Shown here piece after piece: positions 1-27,782 of a stretch of 38,377 bases of DNA (positions within the stretch are counted from its first letter, which is position 1; each line of letters opens with the position of its first letter). The notes under the pieces are model-generated. The model had not been told where the DNA came from, made no database searches, and saw only the letters and a program-made list of their open reading frames with translations. The position numbers and the translations under genes were made by a program. This DNA is from a virus (Duplodnaviria > Heunggongvirae > Uroviricota > Caudoviricetes), in IMG/VR virus record IMGVR_UViG_2531839475_000013; one strand, 5' to 3'.

Positions 1-483
1 CTATCTGGTCAGGGTGTCGTACTGTTTTTCACAGACTCTTCCGGCTTCGGCTGCCCGGTCAGCATACTCTGCCAGTTGTCTGTTTCTCTCGAGAGATTTA
101 CTGAGCACGTCGGCAAGCAAAACTCCGGTGTCTGCGGCTGACGTCCCAGCGCCGACAATGGCGTTATACTGCCTGAGCTGCTCACGGATGGCAACGAGCT
201 GTTGCTGCAACCGGCCAGCGCGAGCGGCAGCATCAAGAGCATCATTGCGCGCCTGGTCGATCCTCTGCTGCGCTTCACGTTCATTGATCGCTTTCTCCTG
301 TTCGTAGTGCTGACGAATTCTCTCATCTTCGGTTTTGCGGTCTTCTTTCGCCTGCGCATACCCGGCGTCGTACTGACGACTGCCGTGTACACTCCAGGCA
401 ACAACTCCTGATATGACCAGAACAGCAAGCACCGCCATGATAATCAACTGTTTCCGGTATGCTTTTACGAATGCCAAGATCAT
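1..483 (-). CDS. Rz-like i-spanin (lysis)
   Basis: 160-aa ORF immediately after the endolysin with a 4-nt overlap; N-terminal TM helix ([14 protein letters not shown]) then a charged, Gln/Arg/Ala-rich helical domain; a lipoprotein ORF is embedded in another frame (Rz1 arrangement). Stop codon at 1..3. Confidence 0.6.
9..284 (-). CDS. Rz1-like o-spanin lipoprotein embedded in the Rz frame
   Basis: Out-of-frame ORF wholly inside the Rz-like gene; signal peptide with lipobox ([23 protein letters not shown]), then a Ser/Pro-rich mature peptide. Start could instead be the MM doublet at 245. Confidence 0.5.
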   Translation of the reverse strand: MNVKRSRGSTRRAMMLLMLPLALAGCSNSSLPSVSSSGSITPLSALGRQPQTPEFCLPTCSVNLSRETDNWQSMLTGQPKPEESVKNSTTP

Positions 484-4982: not shown

Positions 4983-5076
4983 ATTTACATCGCACTCCTC
5001 TTGTGCCATAGTAATCGGGCACTGGCAAAATCCAGTGCCGGGATTGGCGTCCCGAGTTACTACAGAGGCACATATG

Positions 5077-5096
5077 CCGCATAAGCGGTTTTTTTT
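5077..5096 (+). terminator. weak intrinsic terminator (CCGC-ATAA-GCGG then T8)
   Basis: Short GC stem followed by eight T; lies between the small antirepressor-like gene and the Bro-N gene. Confidence 0.35.
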
Positions 5097-5249
5097 ATGT
5101 GTAAAGCGCACCTATTCTATGGTGGGCTGTGTGGGGGCACCGAAAGGTGCGCCGGGTCCTTTGTAGCCGGTTACGCCAACCCTGCACAGTTCACCACCAA
5201 CCGATTGGCGTCGGTAGTGGTGATTAACCTAACTACAAAGGTGATCACT

Positions 5250-5936
5250 ATGACTGCTAACGTAACCCCATCTGTTTTTCATTTTGAATCAGAAGCAACC
5301 ATTCGAGCCATTGTTATTGATGGAAATCCTTGGTTTGTTGCCAAAGACGTTATTAAAGCTCTTCAACTGACAAACCCCACTATGTCAATAAAATCTCTTG
5401 ATGATGATGAAAGGGCTAAATTTAACTTAGGCCGTCAAGGCGAAACCAATATTATCAACGAGTCAGGCCTCTACACACTGATCCTCCGCTGCCGCGATGC
5501 AGTAACACCAGGCACTATCCCCTACCGCTTTCGCAAATGGGTTACAGGTGAGGTACTTCCTCAGATCCGCCGCACCGGAAGTTACATTAAAAACTCGCTC
5601 CCGCAAGAAGAACGCATAAAGATGGTTGCCGACCAGGTAGCCAACGCCACGGCGTCAGCAGTGATGCAGGCAATGAAGATAGAGAACAAAACCTACAGCG
5701 CCCCACTGAAGCCCGGCTACCGCAGCCTGATTCACTCGCCGTCTGGTGTTCTCGGCCTGACGGAGAACTCACTGCTGATGAATCTGCTGAACCAGTTACA
5801 GGAAGACGGGCACGACGTATCGGGCGCGGCGGCGGAGCTGACCACCATGTTCTGCTACATCGTCGGTGTGAGTAAATGCCTGCGTGATATCCAGACCCAC
5901 GCGGAATACATCAACGACAAAGCAGGGTTCTTCTGA
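5250..5936 (+). CDS. Bro-N domain antirepressor
   Basis: N-terminal region (VIDGNPWFVAKDVIKALQL...) matches the Bro-N/antirepressor DNA-binding domain; RBS AAAGGTGA; start chosen at the ATG at 5250 rather than the ORF-track start at 5097. Confidence 0.7.
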   Translation: MTANVTPSVFHFESEATIRAIVIDGNPWFVAKDVIKALQLTNPTMSIKSLDDDERAKFNLGRQGETNIINESGLYTLILRCRDAVTPGTIPYRFRKWVTGEVLPQIRRTGSYIKNSLPQEERIKMVADQVANATASAVMQAMKIENKTYSAPLKPGYRSLIHSPSGVLGLTENSLLMNLLNQLQEDGHDVSGAAAELTTMFCYIVGVSKCLRDIQTHAEYINDKAGFF

Positions 5937-7723: not shown

Positions 7724-7751
7724 GTTAAAAACAAGGCCGCGAAAGCGGCCT
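7724..7751 (-). terminator. intrinsic terminator ending the late operon (AGGCCGC-GAAA-GCGGCCT, T-run on minus strand)
   Basis: 7-bp GC stem with GNRA loop; on the minus strand it is followed by TGTTTTTAAC; lies between the convergent lipoprotein gene and the accessory cassette. Confidence 0.6.
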
Positions 7752-7763
7752 GTGACATGTCAC
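7752..7763. repeat. perfect 12-bp palindrome GTGACATGTCAC (copy 1 of 3)
   Basis: Identical 12-mer also at 25171..25182 and 27436..27447; abuts the terminator hairpin. Confidence 0.8.
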
Positions 7764-7766
7764 GAC

Positions 7767-8180
7767 TTATAAAGATGACTGATATTTTACAACTCTGTTC
7801 ATGGCATCTTTTTTCACCGAGCTGATATCAGTTCTTATTTTGGCTTCGTCATTACTGCTTATCATGCTATTAATTTTTTGCACTGACATGCCGTTTCTTT
7901 CAGCCATTGCACATACAGCAGCATCGTATGAAGAACTCGCTGCGATGGATATCACCTTGTTACACTCAAACACAGCACCTTCAGCAATATCAGATGCCGA
8001 TGAGGCTGGCTTGGTATAAGTCTTGACGTAGTGATCAATACAACTATCCTTCGCCGTCTTGGCAAGAGAAAAATCCATTTTAACTTTGTCGCAATATGCC
8101 TTATCAACACCGTCATAAACATCATAGGATGTCGAGCAAGCGGATATCAAAAATACCGATAACAGCAATAATTCCTTCAT
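7767..8180 (-). CDS. Cys-rich lipoprotein, last gene of the late operon (candidate exclusion lipoprotein)
   Basis: 137 aa; signal peptide with lipobox (MKELLLLSVFLISAC); six Cys in the mature part; lower G+C than the flanking virion genes. Confidence 0.6.
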   Translation of the reverse strand: MKELLLLSVFLISACSTSYDVYDGVDKAYCDKVKMDFSLAKTAKDSCIDHYVKTYTKPASSASDIAEGAVFECNKVISIAASSSYDAAVCAMAERNGMSVQKINSMISSNDEAKIRTDISSVKKDAMNRVVKYQSSL

Positions 8181-18462: not shown

Positions 18463-19070
18463 CAGGACAACCTCGCAATGGTAAACTCGTCAACCGGTGG
18501 CTGTGGTTCCTGTGATTCATTCTGGCTATGCGAGCCAGCACTAAGAATCACGCGATTGTACATATTGAGGGCAAACGTACCGAGGTCTGCATTCCCAGTC
18601 AGTGCCATGTTAATAGCTGCCGCAAGACGCCAGGCCAACGCCTCCATAAAAATGGCATCAAACATGTTCACATCTGAAACGCGAGAGACATACTTGAGCC
18701 ATGCCTGCGGCTGGTCTGTGTAGATCAACTTTCCTGTTCCGTTGGTGTCTGCACCAACTTCGTACTGAACGCGCATTGCTGCTGTTGGATTGCGTACACC
18801 AGGAAGCATAATTTCAGTAATGCGCAGACAATCGGACGGGTACTGGTACGCATATTCCCAGTCAGGCGGTGGATTGCTCGTATCTGCAAGCGCCACGCGT
18901 TTGGTAGCAAAGTTCCAGTCAAAATCAGAAAGAACAGCATCACGGCAGGCCTCAAAGTGCAGCGAACATTCACCCGCTTCCTTGCTGGCTTCCGTCAGGC
19001 TGTTAATACTGCGGCTGTTGCCAATATTGGACAGCGCACGATTACAGATCTCTACTACAGAGGCCATCAC
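18462..19070 (-). CDS. tail tubular (adaptor) protein A-like
   Basis: 202 aa, preceding the 823-aa tubular-B-like gene with start/stop overlap; T7 gp11-like size and position. Confidence 0.5.
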   Translation of the reverse strand: MMASVVEICNRALSNIGNSRSINSLTEASKEAGECSLHFEACRDAVLSDFDWNFATKRVALADTSNPPPDWEYAYQYPSDCLRITEIMLPGVRNPTAAMRVQYEVGADTNGTGKLIYTDQPQAWLKYVSRVSDVNMFDAIFMEALAWRLAAAINMALTGNADLGTFALNMYNRVILSAGSHSQNESQEPQPPVDEFTIARLS

Positions 19071-19440: not shown

Positions 19441-19785
19441 TTACACGCCCAGTTCTTTACGCTTATCTGCGATCTTCTCGCGGAGCGTTTCGGCTTTAGC
19501 GTTATGGTGTGGCTTCTCGTTAAAGAGCAATTCGTACTCTTCACGGAGCTTATCCAGTTCACCATCATCTGACACATCGTTGATGATTTTGGTGCTGGTT
19601 GCTGCCATAGACACCTTTCCTGCTACCTTTGCTTTTGCCTGTCTGGCTGCATCGTTAACAGGTTCCAGTGCGCTACCAGGCTCACCTTCGTATTCGATTT
19701 CTGCCCCCTCCGGCCACAGTGTGTTATGGATATGAGAGAGGCGCAGAACGCGGTATCTTGGTTTCTCACCTGACATCGATATCAC
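19441..19785 (-). CDS. small head-associated protein
   Basis: 114 aa, charged/helical; in the head module after the capsid gene. Confidence 0.4.
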   Translation of the reverse strand: MISMSGEKPRYRVLRLSHIHNTLWPEGAEIEYEGEPGSALEPVNDAARQAKAKVAGKVSMAATSTKIINDVSDDGELDKLREEYELLFNEKPHHNAKAETLREKIADKRKELGV

Positions 19786-24168: not shown

Positions 24169-24236
24169 ATCAATGACTCCGTACGCAATTAAATTATTAC
24201 CAATTTAACCACATATGATTTATTTATCGTAGATAG

Positions 24237-24273
24237 TTGACATTTAACGCACAAATTATTACCTTTCAGGTAA
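24237..24273 (+). promoter_or_regulatory. promoter (-35 TTGACA at 24237..24242) with operator TTACCTTTCAGGTAA (24259..24273)
   Basis: Consensus -35 hexamer; perfect TTACC-N5-GGTAA over the -10/+1 region; module resembles 4530..4605 and 30185..30275. Confidence 0.5.
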
Positions 24274-24594: not shown

Positions 24595-24671
24595 GTGGCA
24601 TTAGCTCAGCTGGACAGAGCAACCGCCTTCTAAGCGGTTGGTCGCAGGTTCGAATCCTGCATGCCACGCCA
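24595..24671 (+). tRNA. tRNA-Arg (anticodon UCU)
   Basis: Hand-folded cloverleaf: acceptor GTGGCAT/ATGCCAC, D-arm GCTC-AGCTGGACA-GAGC, anticodon stem ACCGC/GCGGT with loop CTTCTAA (anticodon TCT), T-arm GCAGG-TTCGAAT-CCTGC, discriminator G, encoded CCA. Confidence 0.9.
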
Positions 24672-24869: not shown

Positions 24870-25166
24870 ATGAGCGAAACATCAACAGTATCTTTCTCCA
24901 CTGCTTTGTCATCACTCAAAGATGGTAAGCGCATTGCACGTGCCGGATGGAATGGCAAAGGCATGTATCTGCAACTGGTTAAGCCACCGCAATCGGCCAC
25001 TCCGAACGATTGGCGATTTGACGTTACATGCGGTGACGAGTATACATTTGTACCTGGCGTTAAACTTCTACCGTGGATTGGGATGAAAACTGCTGACGGT
25101 TGCTTTGTACCGTGGCTGGCATCTCAAACCGATCTGCTATCTGATGATTGGATTGTAATTCAATAA
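24870..25166 (+). CDS. DUF2829-like small protein (Tad2-like candidate anti-defence sponge)
   Basis: 98 aa; N-terminal ALSSLKDGKRIARAGWNGKGMYLQLV and C-terminal ASQTDLLSDDWIVIQ match my recollection of the DUF2829 signature; RBS AAGGTGA. Not verified by HMM. Confidence 0.5.
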   Translation: MSETSTVSFSTALSSLKDGKRIARAGWNGKGMYLQLVKPPQSATPNDWRFDVTCGDEYTFVPGVKLLPWIGMKTADGCFVPWLASQTDLLSDDWIVIQ

Positions 25167-25170
25167 CACC

Positions 25171-25182
25171 GTGACATGTCAC
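25171..25182. repeat. perfect 12-bp palindrome GTGACATGTCAC (copy 2 of 3)
   Basis: Starts 5 nt after the stop of the DUF2829-like gene and 4 nt before the terminator hairpin. Confidence 0.8.
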
Positions 25183-25186
25183 AAAC

Positions 25187-25214
25187 AGCCAGCCTATGAG
25201 CTGGCTTTGTTTTA
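25187..25214 (+). terminator. intrinsic terminator (AGCCAGC-CTATGA-GCTGGCT then TTGTTTTA)
   Basis: 7-bp stem, 6-nt loop, T-rich tail; ends the plus-strand tRNA/DUF2829 unit just before the convergent TerL stop. Confidence 0.6.
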
Positions 25215-25256: not shown

Positions 25257-26732
25257 TTAAGCATAGGGATCGTAATCTGTGATGGCCTTGCCTTGCTGGT
25301 TCTGCTGACCGGGAATTCGCAGACGCTTCGACACAGGGAACGCAAACGTCAGCAGTAGCGCATCGCCTTTACCAGGAGAACGCCCAAGTCGTTCTTTGAT
25401 ATCTTCCTTCGGTTCGATAACGATTTTACCGTCCACTCGAACTTTGTACTCTGCCGCCGACAGATCGTCCGCTGTTTCCTGGTCATCCAGCATGCCGCCG
25501 AGCCTCAGCCATGTCTTGCATGAGTTGAACATCTCCCCACGCTTGTTGAGCATCTGCGGGTCAGTAGACGCGCCACCGAACGGAACAAGTTGCCATGTAC
25601 GACCCCAGCCGTCACCGATTGACTTCAGACCAGTTCCGTAACCGAAGTCGATGAACACTGCGTCAGCCTGATACTGGTCTTCAAAGTCAGCGATACGCTT
25701 CGCCATAATCAGATCGTCGGTAGTCTTGTTGCCAGTCCACAGCACCTTACTGTGTAGCCCCTGCCGCAGGTATATCACCGCGTCATCAACGCCTGAATAT
25801 GCCGGGTCAACACCGATTATCACCGGAGCATGCGCCACCTGCGCAGCAGTTACCACCCGTTTCATTGCCTCGTCAGTAAGGCCGGTAGGGATAAACTGCA
25901 ATTCAGATGCATCAGGGAATATGCCGCGCACACGGATTTTAACGAAGTCGCTGTCTTCCCCGTAGTCATCAACCCATTTCTGCAACTGCTGTTTGTTAGT
26001 GCCTTCCACCGTTCGGCTGTCAATCTGCGCAGTTTTCCAGCGGTGTTTATATTTGCGGAAACATTCGCGAAAACGCCCGGTATTACGCGTCGGGTTTCCG
26101 AACGCCACCCAGATAATCTCAGTGTCTTCGTCCGTAAGCGCACCCTCAGCAACTTCCCACACCAGATCCGCAATGTTCGACGCTTCATCGAATACCAAGA
26201 TGATGCGTTTGCGCTCATTGTGTAATCCGGCGAATGCCTCAGTGTTGTGCTCAGACCAGGGGATTGCGTCAGCTCGCCACCGCTTGTCGTGCCCAGGGTC
26301 ATTGCCGTACATCGCGGTAGCGGTGCAGGTGAACCAGTCTTTCGTGATAGCAAGGTTCGACCACTTGATAATTTCAGGCCAGGTCTTCGTTCGTAGCTGG
26401 TTGTCGGTGTTGGCGGTCACCACGACCTTACAATCCTCGCAAGTGGACATGCCCCAGTTGATCAGCATTGAGATGAATGCGGATTTACCAATACCGTGAC
26501 CAGAAGCACGTGCCAGCATAAGCGGCTGATATCGCGTCTCTGGATTCTGCAGGTGATCACGTATCTCTCGGAACGCATCGGCCTGCCACTGACGTGGGCC
26601 GGTGGCATGTGCCAGTTCAGTACCCTCTTCCCCCCACGGGAAAGCATAGAGGGCATAGCCAAGCGGATCGTGAGTGAACCCTGCAATATCCTCGATCAAC
26701 TGCTCTTCAGGAGATAACGCTGTATCTTTCAC
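25257..26732 (-). CDS. terminase large subunit
   Basis: 491 aa; Walker A-like ARASGHGIGKS near the N-terminus, acidic nuclease-type C-terminal half; 4-nt overlap with TerS. Confidence 0.85.
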   Translation of the reverse strand: MKDTALSPEEQLIEDIAGFTHDPLGYALYAFPWGEEGTELAHATGPRQWQADAFREIRDHLQNPETRYQPLMLARASGHGIGKSAFISMLINWGMSTCEDCKVVVTANTDNQLRTKTWPEIIKWSNLAITKDWFTCTATAMYGNDPGHDKRWRADAIPWSEHNTEAFAGLHNERKRIILVFDEASNIADLVWEVAEGALTDEDTEIIWVAFGNPTRNTGRFRECFRKYKHRWKTAQIDSRTVEGTNKQQLQKWVDDYGEDSDFVKIRVRGIFPDASELQFIPTGLTDEAMKRVVTAAQVAHAPVIIGVDPAYSGVDDAVIYLRQGLHSKVLWTGNKTTDDLIMAKRIADFEDQYQADAVFIDFGYGTGLKSIGDGWGRTWQLVPFGGASTDPQMLNKRGEMFNSCKTWLRLGGMLDDQETADDLSAAEYKVRVDGKIVIEPKEDIKERLGRSPGKGDALLLTFAFPVSKRLRIPGQQNQQGKAITDYDPYA

Positions 26733-27325
26733 TGATTACCATCCTGACGTTCTTTGAGTCGCTTCCTGGCTGCTGCTATGCGATCAGCAATTGTCACATT
26801 CACATTAACATCCAGACGTTCTTTGAACGCGTTGACATCAACATGCTTACCAATCAGCTCAAGGTTCTTCACCTTGTCAGGCCATTTAATTTTTTTGAGG
26901 ATTGTCTCTATCGAATCCTCATTCATGTTCATGATGGTCGATGACAGATCAAAGCCGCTAAGCGTAGTGCGCCAGATTTTCGGCCACTCGCGAATTGGCT
27001 TAAGGCTTCCATCGTCGTTGAGGATATCAATCACGTCCATCTGGTCGATCTCCACCAGGCGCATGAGAACGTAATCAGCACTGACGCGCATTCGTTTGTT
27101 GCGCTCCTCCATCAACTCGGCAATCCGTTTTTGAATGCGTTCATCGCGCATCATTACACTGGCTTTAACTGCCGCTGTATTTGGGGAGAATCCTGCGTTA
27201 ATCGCTGCCTGAGTCTGGTTTTCAGGCGTTTTGATGTATGACTGGCAATAAGCCTCCTGCATTGCTGTGAGCGGCTTAAATTGCGTTGATTTGCGTTTAT
27301 AGGTTTTAGGTTCAGCAGGCATCAT
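26729..27325 (-). CDS. terminase small subunit
   Basis: Start placed at the ATG doublet at 27325 (MMPAEPK...); region LTAMQEAYCQSYIKTPENQTQAAINAGFSPNTA matches the small-terminase HTH motif. The ORF-track start at 27403 is a TTG giving an implausible TITTTVTITT leader. Confidence 0.7.
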   Translation of the reverse strand: MMPAEPKTYKRKSTQFKPLTAMQEAYCQSYIKTPENQTQAAINAGFSPNTAAVKASVMMRDERIQKRIAELMEERNKRMRVSADYVLMRLVEIDQMDVIDILNDDGSLKPIREWPKIWRTTLSGFDLSSTIMNMNEDSIETILKKIKWPDKVKNLELIGKHVDVNAFKERLDVNVNVTIADRIAAARKRLKERQDGNQ

Positions 27326-27368
27326 AACCACCGTGGTAATAGTTACCGTTGTGGTAATAGTACCATGC

Positions 27369-27394
27369 AAAATAAAGCCGCCATAGTTGGCGGC
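27369..27394 (-). terminator. intrinsic terminator upstream of TerS (GCCGCC-ATAGTT-GGCGGC, then TTTATTTT on minus strand)
   Basis: 6-bp GC stem followed on the minus strand by a T-run; sits between the last early gene and TerS (tR'-like position). Confidence 0.5.
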
Positions 27395-27435
27395 AGTATT
27401 CAAAACCCGTCAAATTCATCATGCATAATCTACTC

Positions 27436-27447
27436 GTGACATGTCAC
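27436..27447. repeat. perfect 12-bp palindrome GTGACATGTCAC (copy 3 of 3)
   Basis: Overlaps the stop codon of the zinc-ribbon gene, ~45 bp upstream (minus-strand sense) of the terminator before TerS. Confidence 0.8.
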
Positions 27448-27782
27448 ACTATTAATTTCGTTTCATGCCAGCCTTTAGTCACCCAGCATTGCGAGTCACC
27501 ATTACACGGGCATGAATTAACTGGAACTCTCTCGCCGCACTTACCGCAACGTTTTCTGCTGATCGATTTTATACGCCCGCGCACGCGTGCATCATCCTGG
27601 CGGATCAGTAACGCTACATACTCACCAAATTCGTAAGGCGCACGCCCGGGGCGACGCGTGGCACAGTTACGCTCCAGCATTTCAATTTCCTGAGCATCAA
27701 GCACAATTTCCAGCTTACGCACACCAGATGCAGCTTGTCTAGCTCTCTGAGCGGCTTTGCGCTCTGCTGCTGATTTAGCCAT
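27444..27782 (-). CDS. small basic protein with C-terminal Cys-rich zinc-ribbon-like motif (candidate late-gene regulator)
   Basis: 112 aa; Arg/Lys-rich N-terminus, C-terminal CGKCGERVPVNSCPCNGDSQC; last gene before the terminator/TerS junction. Confidence 0.35.
   Translation of the reverse strand: MAKSAAERKAAQRARQAASGVRKLEIVLDAQEIEMLERNCATRRPGRAPYEFGEYVALLIRQDDARVRGRIKSISRKRCGKCGERVPVNSCPCNGDSQCWVTKGWHETKLIV

Follow-up and report, generated by a model that had tools for sequence, protein, structure and literature searches.

The last early gene ahead of the terminase genes of an epsilon15/phiV10-like temperate phage most likely encodes, to judge from its predicted model, a small and probably dimeric ribbon-helix-helix (RHH) DNA-binding protein of 112 amino acids, and the 12-bp palindrome that overlaps its stop codon is very probably the cognate DNA site of that protein. 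From the distribution of the two we infer that they travel together as a portable cassette, present in the early operons of many types of temperate phage, in which the site overlaps or adjoins the stop codon of the gene. As to function, the reading that we prefer, tentative and falling somewhat short of probable, is that the RHH protein binds (Y)GTGAC-N2-GTCAC(R) and that the gene-plus-site cassette serves as a local boundary element at operon borders. The features concerned are given below, with positions in the window, by which we mean the whole stretch of 38,377 nucleotides that was analysed.

27444..27782, minus strand: gene for a predicted RHH plus Cys4 zinc-ribbon protein (epsilon15 gp49/N15 gp46 family, PHROG 536), 112 aa, ATG start
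27436..27447, no strand: site S1, palindrome GTGACATGTCAC, perfect over 12 bp and including the TGA stop at 27446..27444
27369..27394, minus strand: intrinsic terminator ending the early operon, stem GCCGCCAACTATGGCGGC (27394..27377), T-tract TTTATTTT (27376..27369)
27343..27365, minus strand: candidate extended -10 promoter TGGTACTAT (27365..27357) overlapping operator TTACCACAACGGTAA (27357..27343), ahead of TerS
26729..27325, minus strand: gene for the terminase small subunit TerS (PF03592, E 1.4e-29; phrog_51), likely start ATG at 27325
25171..25182, no strand: site S2, second exact copy of GTGACATGTCAC, between the 3' end of TerL and the 3' end of a reverse-strand Tad2-like moron
25183..25212, no strand: bidirectional terminator-like hairpin at S2 (z -2.7 and -2.9), with a poor U-tract on the TerL side and a good one on the plus strand
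7752..7763, no strand: site S3, third exact copy of GTGACATGTCAC, after the last gene of the structural operon
7727..7750, minus strand: intrinsic terminator after S3, GGCCGCTTTCGCGGCC plus TTGTTTTT, -16.5 kcal/mol, z -3.3

The last early gene and its family

In the window we have a nearly complete temperate podophage of the epsilon15/phiV10-like (Uetakevirus) kind, read on the minus strand; its closest relatives are TL-2011b (94%) and vB_EcoP_ZX5 and HEMP4 (98%). A sequence-only reading of the same DNA had taken the ORF at 27444..27782 (minus strand) for the last early gene ahead of TerS, coding for a basic protein with a C-terminal Cys cluster, and both points hold. An AGGAA Shine-Dalgarno sequence lies about 9 nt upstream of the ORF, and the genes at the junction run in the order lambda-P-like loader, DUF1064, Ead/Ea22-DUF551, NinX, 112-aa ORF, TerS, TerL. 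The product has a pI of 9.8, with 23 Lys and Arg residues against 13 Asp and Glu; its cysteines are at positions 40, 79, 82, 91, 93, and 99, five of them C-terminal, and the string CGKCGERVPVNSCPCNGDSQC is present.

The protein matches the profile of PHROG 536, labeled "transcriptional regulator", along its whole length (residues 1-111, E 3.5e-54) and is 76 to 98% identical to other Uetakevirus proteins, the figure for the epsilon15 protein being 76%; the epsilon15 record itself notes the similarity of gp49 to N15 gp46. No Pfam family was found for it, PADLOC gave no match, and the junction contains no Rfam family. Two apparent additions to the family were rejected: the "gp46" of telomere phage NAR688, considered with regard to expression in lysogens, is the cB repressor and lies outside the gp46/PHROG 536 family, and matches on conjugative plasmids are prophages integrated in those plasmids. 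The paper on phage ZX5 leaves the PHROG 536 gene untreated. Another candidate regulator of this phage is a PerC-like "transcriptional activator" (phrog_868, E 6e-62), encoded at 35991..36290 (plus strand) in the early-left operon.

A predicted ribbon-helix-helix fold with a zinc ribbon

In an alignment of 62 family sequences, R13, C79, C82, and C99 are invariant and R8, E54, L59, P87, and G95 nearly so. The AF2 model of the 112-aa protein (pLDDT 92.9) consists of a helix (residues 5-19), an extended segment (20-29), two further helices (30-42 and 52-74), a zinc knuckle, and a final helix (100-108). A β-strand followed by two helices, with a DNA-reading ribbon in the dimer, is the arrangement that characterizes the RHH superfamily, and it is present in the predicted model; weak HMM matches were obtained to RHH families, to RepB, and to the RHH protein YbfE. 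Judging from the model and the fold search, the reading head would comprise the N-terminal basic helix (R13, R8) and the β-ribbon, and a C-terminal Cys4 zinc ribbon (C79, C82, C91 or C93, and C99) would prolong the second RHH helix. DNA is thus predicted to be read through the RHH motif and the basic helix, not through the zinc cluster.

The C-terminal part has a likeness to the DksA/TraR zinc-finger proteins, in which a helix is likewise followed by CxxCGxx(I/L/V)P...G..C, but the second CxxC pair of their CxxC-x17-CxxC finger is absent from the phage protein. Profile matches to YbiI and TraR were weak (E 0.016-0.03; hhalign probability, 46%) and disappeared when the C-terminal profile was used alone, and no structural search confirmed them. 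With respect to the RHH regulators of phages and plasmids (Arc, Mnt, CopG, omega, ParG, TraY/TraM, AmrZ), the predicted protein differs in its additional N-terminal basic reading helix and its C-terminal zinc ribbon. It differs from regulators of the Arc/Mnt/CopG type also in the position of its presumptive sites, which lie at operon 3' ends and terminators and not at the gene's own promoter.

A palindrome that accompanies the gene

As had been noticed from the sequence, the TGA stop of the gene (27446..27444) is contained in the palindrome at 27436..27447. The window contains the 12-mer in three exact copies (starting at 7752, 25171, and 27436), where 0.0022 copies are expected from base composition (P for three or more, about 2e-9). 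Epsilon15 carries three copies at equivalent places, namely, at the gp49 stop, after TerL (2142), and at the end of gp18 (19517), and phiV10 has the same three-copy arrangement (S2 equivalent at 2262, S3 equivalent at 19493); the S2 position is also kept in Klebsiella and Citrobacter relatives. TL-2011b keeps the gene and lacks S2 and S3. Counted per genome, there are three 12-bp sites each in epsilon15, phiV10, N15, and the Vibrio phage K308. The palindrome is thus not peculiar to the early/late junction: its three copies mark three borders, and nothing promoter-like was found near S2 or S3. Compared with the consensus sequences for CRP and SlmA, it was rejected as a site for either on the basis of its spacing and center bases. 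In Klebsiella relatives (L004 4283..4360; L020 6340..6420), S1 and TerS are separated by an insertion with a LexA box, TACTGTTTAAATATACAGTA, and a umuD-like gene, and the 41-nt spacer in the window retains a remnant of that region, GCATGATG.

The link between gene and site extends well beyond these phages. In a census of 621 kb of non-redundant loci carrying PHROG 536 homologues, GTGAC-N2-GTCAC was found 62 times against 0.6 expected, the other spacers from 0 to 8 and the everted arrangement 0 to 2 times each, and the flanks prolong the symmetry to (Y)GTGAC-N2-GTCAC(R). In a genome scan, the exact site lay between -3 and +11 nt from the gene's stop in 21 of 27 bacterial species; a one-mismatch copy is at the stop in two more, and six of the 27 loci have no exact site there. 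The sequence at the stop is GTGACGCGTCAC in the Yersinia P2-like phage and GTGACTGGTCAC in N15 gp46 and Kpn74, as it is in a Pseudomonas prophage homologue with 31% protein identity; in IMG/VR contigs, too, the site is on or just past the stop of the homologue. Aeromonas phages carry a variant, GTGACCGGACAC, in two or three repeats. In Xenorhabdus, the site begins 5 nt past a separate TGA, so it is no by-product of coding. A Mu-like prophage on a Serratia plasmid (L021 6337..6348; proteins P0143 and P0173) has the site embedded as the codons V-T-G-H, and in this Mu-like subfamily the site keeps its place at the 3' end of the gene even where the reading frame continues.

It is because of this strong co-occurrence that we take the palindrome as, very probably, the protein's cognate site. 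In the library of papers that was searched, none was found to describe the gene-site cassette, its matS-like target, the motif, or MatP-like phage proteins. The sites differ in their position: some are inside genes (N15 repA; lambdoid prophage L018), and some are directly upstream of the Shine-Dalgarno sequence of the next gene (N15 gp47, Kpn74, K308 ORF32 and TerS, and the Aeromonas phage's own gene). The three N15 sites (28550, 33237, and 39269) enclose the region of replication and primary immunity; one comes after gp33, where the leftward early operon ends, another is within repA, and the remaining one coincides with the gp46 stop and adjoins the gp47 Shine-Dalgarno sequence.

Sites beside terminators at transcription-unit borders

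An intrinsic terminator had been proposed between the 112-aa ORF and TerS, and its folding energy (-14.5 kcal/mol; z = -4.1; none of 200 shuffles folds as well) and its conservation and annotation in epsilon15 (39646..39672) and phiV10 bear this out. All three palindromes have a hairpin for a neighbor: S1 lies 41 nt upstream of it and S3 2 nt upstream, and S2 adjoins it (0-3 nt), the hairpin at S2 coming before the site in the TerL direction. The borders so marked are those between the early operon and TerS (S1), between TerL and the reverse-strand moron (S2), and between the end of the structural operon and convergent genes (S3). The moron, located between TerL and the portal gene, consists of tRNA-Arg(TCT) (24595..24671, plus strand) and a Tad2-like anti-Thoeris gene (24870..25166, plus strand; PF11195, E 3e-24). 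S3 comes directly after the stop codon of the last gene of the structural operon (phrog_8691; 7767..8180, minus strand), for which Pfam gives a weak linker-histone-like match that does not reach its cut-off (E 0.001).

In the mechanism that we propose, the protein would be made at the end of early transcription and would occupy the three exact sites, each by a terminator hairpin at a unit border. There it would act as a local boundary element, that is, as a roadblock or termination helper, possibly bridging sites, and the bound protein would insulate neighboring transcription units; it would probably be neither a Q-type antiterminator nor an Ogr-type activator. The boundary or roadblock role is the weakest step of this proposal. 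In its favor, TL-2011b, which has no S2, has a strong canonical terminator there instead. Against it, site positions vary, from just before a Shine-Dalgarno sequence (N15 gp47, K308 TerS) to the interior of a gene (N15 repA, L018). The terminator after TerL in TL-2011b (about 18480..18510) reads GCCCGC...GCGGGC followed by TTTATTTTT, with no palindrome; in the window, epsilon15, phiV10, and the Klebsiella relatives, TerL is followed by a hairpin with a poor U-tract and then at once by the palindrome.

Transcription of TerS itself would, on the same proposal, probably start downstream of the terminator. Direct repeats before TerS, considered as sites for a regulator or for terminase, turned out to be the inverted repeat TTACC-N5-GGTAA, the operator of the prophage repressor. 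This operator occurs nine times in the window (4968, 6007, 24259, 27343, 30196, 30258, 32565, 33277, and 33339) and is annotated "repressor" seven times in epsilon15, where the equivalent of the site in front of TerS is 12..27. Since it overlaps an extended -10-like element, TGnTACTAT, which is conserved in epsilon15 as TGTTACTAT, TerS may have a repressor-controlled promoter of its own. Operators outside the immunity region are found ahead of TerS, the tRNA/Tad2 moron, and the antirepressor region, so the repressor may directly control late and accessory units. Near the moron, at about 24230-24273, a TTGACA promoter-like element accompanies the operator. In the antirepressor region, Rfam matches to isrK (5019..5095, plus strand, 74 bits) and C4 antisense RNA (5115..5201, plus strand, 80 bits) lie just upstream of and overlapping a Bro-N ORF (5097..5936), in the manner of the P1 immI antisense control region.

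Is the protein a late-gene regulator?

An alternative reading, which we regard as unlikely, is that the protein, bound at the palindromes beside the terminators, enables RNA polymerase, on leaving the early operon, to go on into TerS-TerL, the structural operon, and the tail-fiber unit, or else that it activates late promoters. The gene is the last early one before TerS, S1 and S3 are directly upstream of intrinsic terminators, each site is ahead of one late unit, and a search of the window revealed no homologue of Q, N, Ogr, or Mor. In Vibrio phage K308 and Pseudomonas prophage L016, moreover, the succession of family gene, site, promoter, leader, terminator(s), and holin resembles lambda Q-pR'-tR'; no other late regulator is recognizable in these two or in the Uetakeviruses, and the gene sits where Q would. 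The promoter in L016 (10450..10660) is a near-consensus sigma70-like TTGACA-17-TATCTT and that in K308 (L014, 33336..33495) a weaker TTGAAA-17-TATGTT, and the leader is followed in both by one to three strong terminators directly ahead of the holin gene.

The sequence-only reading had likened the junction to the lambda Q-pR'-tR' unit, and this stands in part: in Uetakeviruses, as with lambda Q (and Q21 and Q82), the last early gene is followed by a DNA site and a terminator before the late genes. The palindrome, however, is neither specific to the junction nor, as in lambda, part of a conserved promoter, a promoter-like match that uses it as -35 not being conserved among close relatives. The distance from site to candidate promoter varies likewise (about -74, -92, -92, and -138). 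There are several sites per genome, unlike the situation in lambda; at S2, the hairpin comes ahead of the site in the TerL direction, TL-2011b keeps the gene in the absence of S2 and S3, and the candidate repressor-operated promoter of TerS is downstream of the terminator. Profile and structure searches (Pfam, NCBIfam, PDB, and fold search) yielded no similarity to Q or Ogr, including the Q families PF03589, PF06530, and Q21 type, nor was similarity to any other known antiterminator found.

The company that the family keeps points the same way. In N15, gp46 is accompanied by a Q-like gp40, which has a late promoter and terminator of its own 1.9 kb away; the family gene of the lambdoid prophage L018 is in the pL operon, and this prophage also has a PF03589 Q; the Mu-like prophage has the family gene together with Mor; and the Yersinia P2-like phage vB_YenM_201.16 has both the family gene and a gene in the Ogr position (identified as Ogr from gene position alone). 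Other copies are in nin regions, at the end of pL operons, or just before xis-int, often far from late genes. At the level of the family, these observations speak against the suggestion of a new antiterminator, and because the family co-exists with Q-, Ogr-position-, or Mor-type regulators in N15-, P2-, Mu-, and lambda-like phages, it is unlikely to be a late-gene master switch. A local late-regulatory role in Uetakeviruses, where Q, N, and Ogr are not recognized, may exist.

A compact zinc-finger activator on the model of Ogr had also been suggested. The protein does share with P2 Ogr and P4 Delta its small size, its basic character, and a Cys4 cluster in a temperate phage, but its Cys spacing differs, no HMM match to them was found, and its DNA reading is predicted to be by the RHH motif and basic helix. 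Ogr and Delta sites are TGT-N12-ACA at about -55 of late promoters, unlike GTGAC-N2-GTCAC. In the P2-like Yersinia phage, replacement of Ogr by the family gene was ruled out, the Ogr-position gene being already there.

Resemblance to MatP and matS

MatP, the organizer of the Ter macrodomain in enterobacteria and vibrios, is among the known systems that come nearest to the phage protein and its palindrome. Its target, matS, is GTGAC-RNY-GTCAC (E. coli consensus, GTGACATTGTCAC) and is read by helix α4 and strand β1 of MatP (PMC3603311, PMC8669397). The phage half-sites GTGAC/GTCAC and their Y/R flanks are those of matS, and the site in the window equals the consensus minus one central T; in both systems, a few sites are dispersed over the replicon. 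The phage spacer is, in contrast, strictly 2 (62 sites, against one with a spacer of 3, in the 621-kb census). That single exception is a true 13-bp matS-type motif, GTGACACCGTCAC, which lies at 19491..19503 in Vibrio phage K308 (L014) beside its three 12-bp sites.

The predicted reading head has the same order as that of MatP, a basic helix, a β-strand, and the two RHH helices. The protein lacks the N-terminal four-helix bundle of MatP, having one N-terminal helix only in the model, and it has a Cys4 zinc ribbon in place of the C-terminal coiled coil; it is, besides, phage encoded and expressed from early lytic operons, with a site on its own stop codon. No match to the MatP Pfam families (PF06303/PF17414) was obtained, and similarity by hhalign was not significant (E 0.054; probability, 1%). 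With the family HMM, MatP scores 7 to 9 bits in a collinear match of 73 positions, and 0.2 to 0.4% of shuffles score as high; a search for MatP homologues gave only near-identical sequences and no useful profile. The inverted GTGAC/GTCAC half-sites recognized by MatP are shared through the inferred site only (62 sites). We infer that the phage protein works like MatP in DNA recognition, the sequence similarity between the two being not significant. The family is also found in Pseudomonas, a genus without MatP, which argues that the phage protein, and not host MatP, reads the sites.

Could the protein do for the phage what MatP does for the chromosome? It would then condense or loop phage DNA by bridging or marking the two or three sites there, or would unload or block a host SMC complex (MukBEF, MksBEF, Wadjet-type) as MatP-matS does for MukBEF, and this we consider quite unlikely. 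The identity of half-sites and flanks and the layout of the reading head speak for it, as do the few dispersed sites with the gene next to one of them, a pattern typical of centromere-like systems (parB-parS, sopB-sopC), and the hosts, most of which belong to the MatP/MukBEF clade. Prophages, moreover, avoid the true 13-bp matS (PMC3603311). On the other side are the nonsignificant sequence similarity, the absence of the MatP domains for MukBEF contact and tetramerization, the occurrence in Pseudomonas, and the fact that oligomerization through the zinc ribbon would be hypothetical. The same doubt attaches to the broader view that a minimal MatP-like protein and its "matS minus one" sites, found in many temperate phages and orthogonal to host MatP/matS, mark phage DNA at operon borders so that it is bridged or insulated there or so that host SMC complexes (MukBEF, Mks, Wadjet) are evicted or blocked, and that they are a mobile ancestor or derivative of the chromosomal system; we would rate this as improbable to much the same degree.

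RNA-level and packaging alternatives

It is very unlikely, in our estimation, that the palindrome acts in the transcript, as a small hairpin (4-bp stem, tetraloop) bound by the arginine-rich N terminus and serving as a nut-like element or translational operator. Such a hairpin is predicted beside the terminator hairpins, and the sites that directly precede Shine-Dalgarno sequences (N15 gp47, Kpn74, K308 ORF32 and TerS, the Aeromonas phage's own gene) would suit it, but the RNA stem has only 4 pairs, RHH folds read DNA, and the sites are strand independent, S2 serving convergent units. Symmetry that continues through the Y/R flanks, a strict spacing of 2, and a variable, often self-complementary center fit recognition of duplex DNA by a dimer. 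That protein and sites help terminase to recognize the genome, as a pac- or cos-proximal factor, seems to us hardly credible. TerS-TerL is flanked by S1 and S2 in Uetakeviruses as well as in Klebsiella relatives, K308 has a site 19 nt ahead of TerS, and the gene of the P2-like phage is in the A-to-Q interval, where P2 has cos. But the three sites per genome are dispersed, one of them 17 kb away, TL-2011b lacks S2, and family members are found in nin regions, where pL operons end, and in the early region of the Mu-like prophage, the N15 gene being 7 kb from cos.

Implications for the PHROG 536 family

The family would belong to a known class, that of the RHH site-specific DNA binders, and its new part would be the gene-site cassette with a matS-like target. 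As this target is one base short of matS, and prophages avoid the true matS, the question arises whether the phage system runs parallel to host MatP or interferes with it. An uncharacterized family, PHROG 536, gains a precise predicted target, (Y)GTGAC-N2-GTCAC(R), a predicted reading head, and, in this phage, three defined sites. For late-gene switching in Uetakeviruses, the candidate elements are the three palindromes by terminators together with the repressor operators ahead of each late unit.
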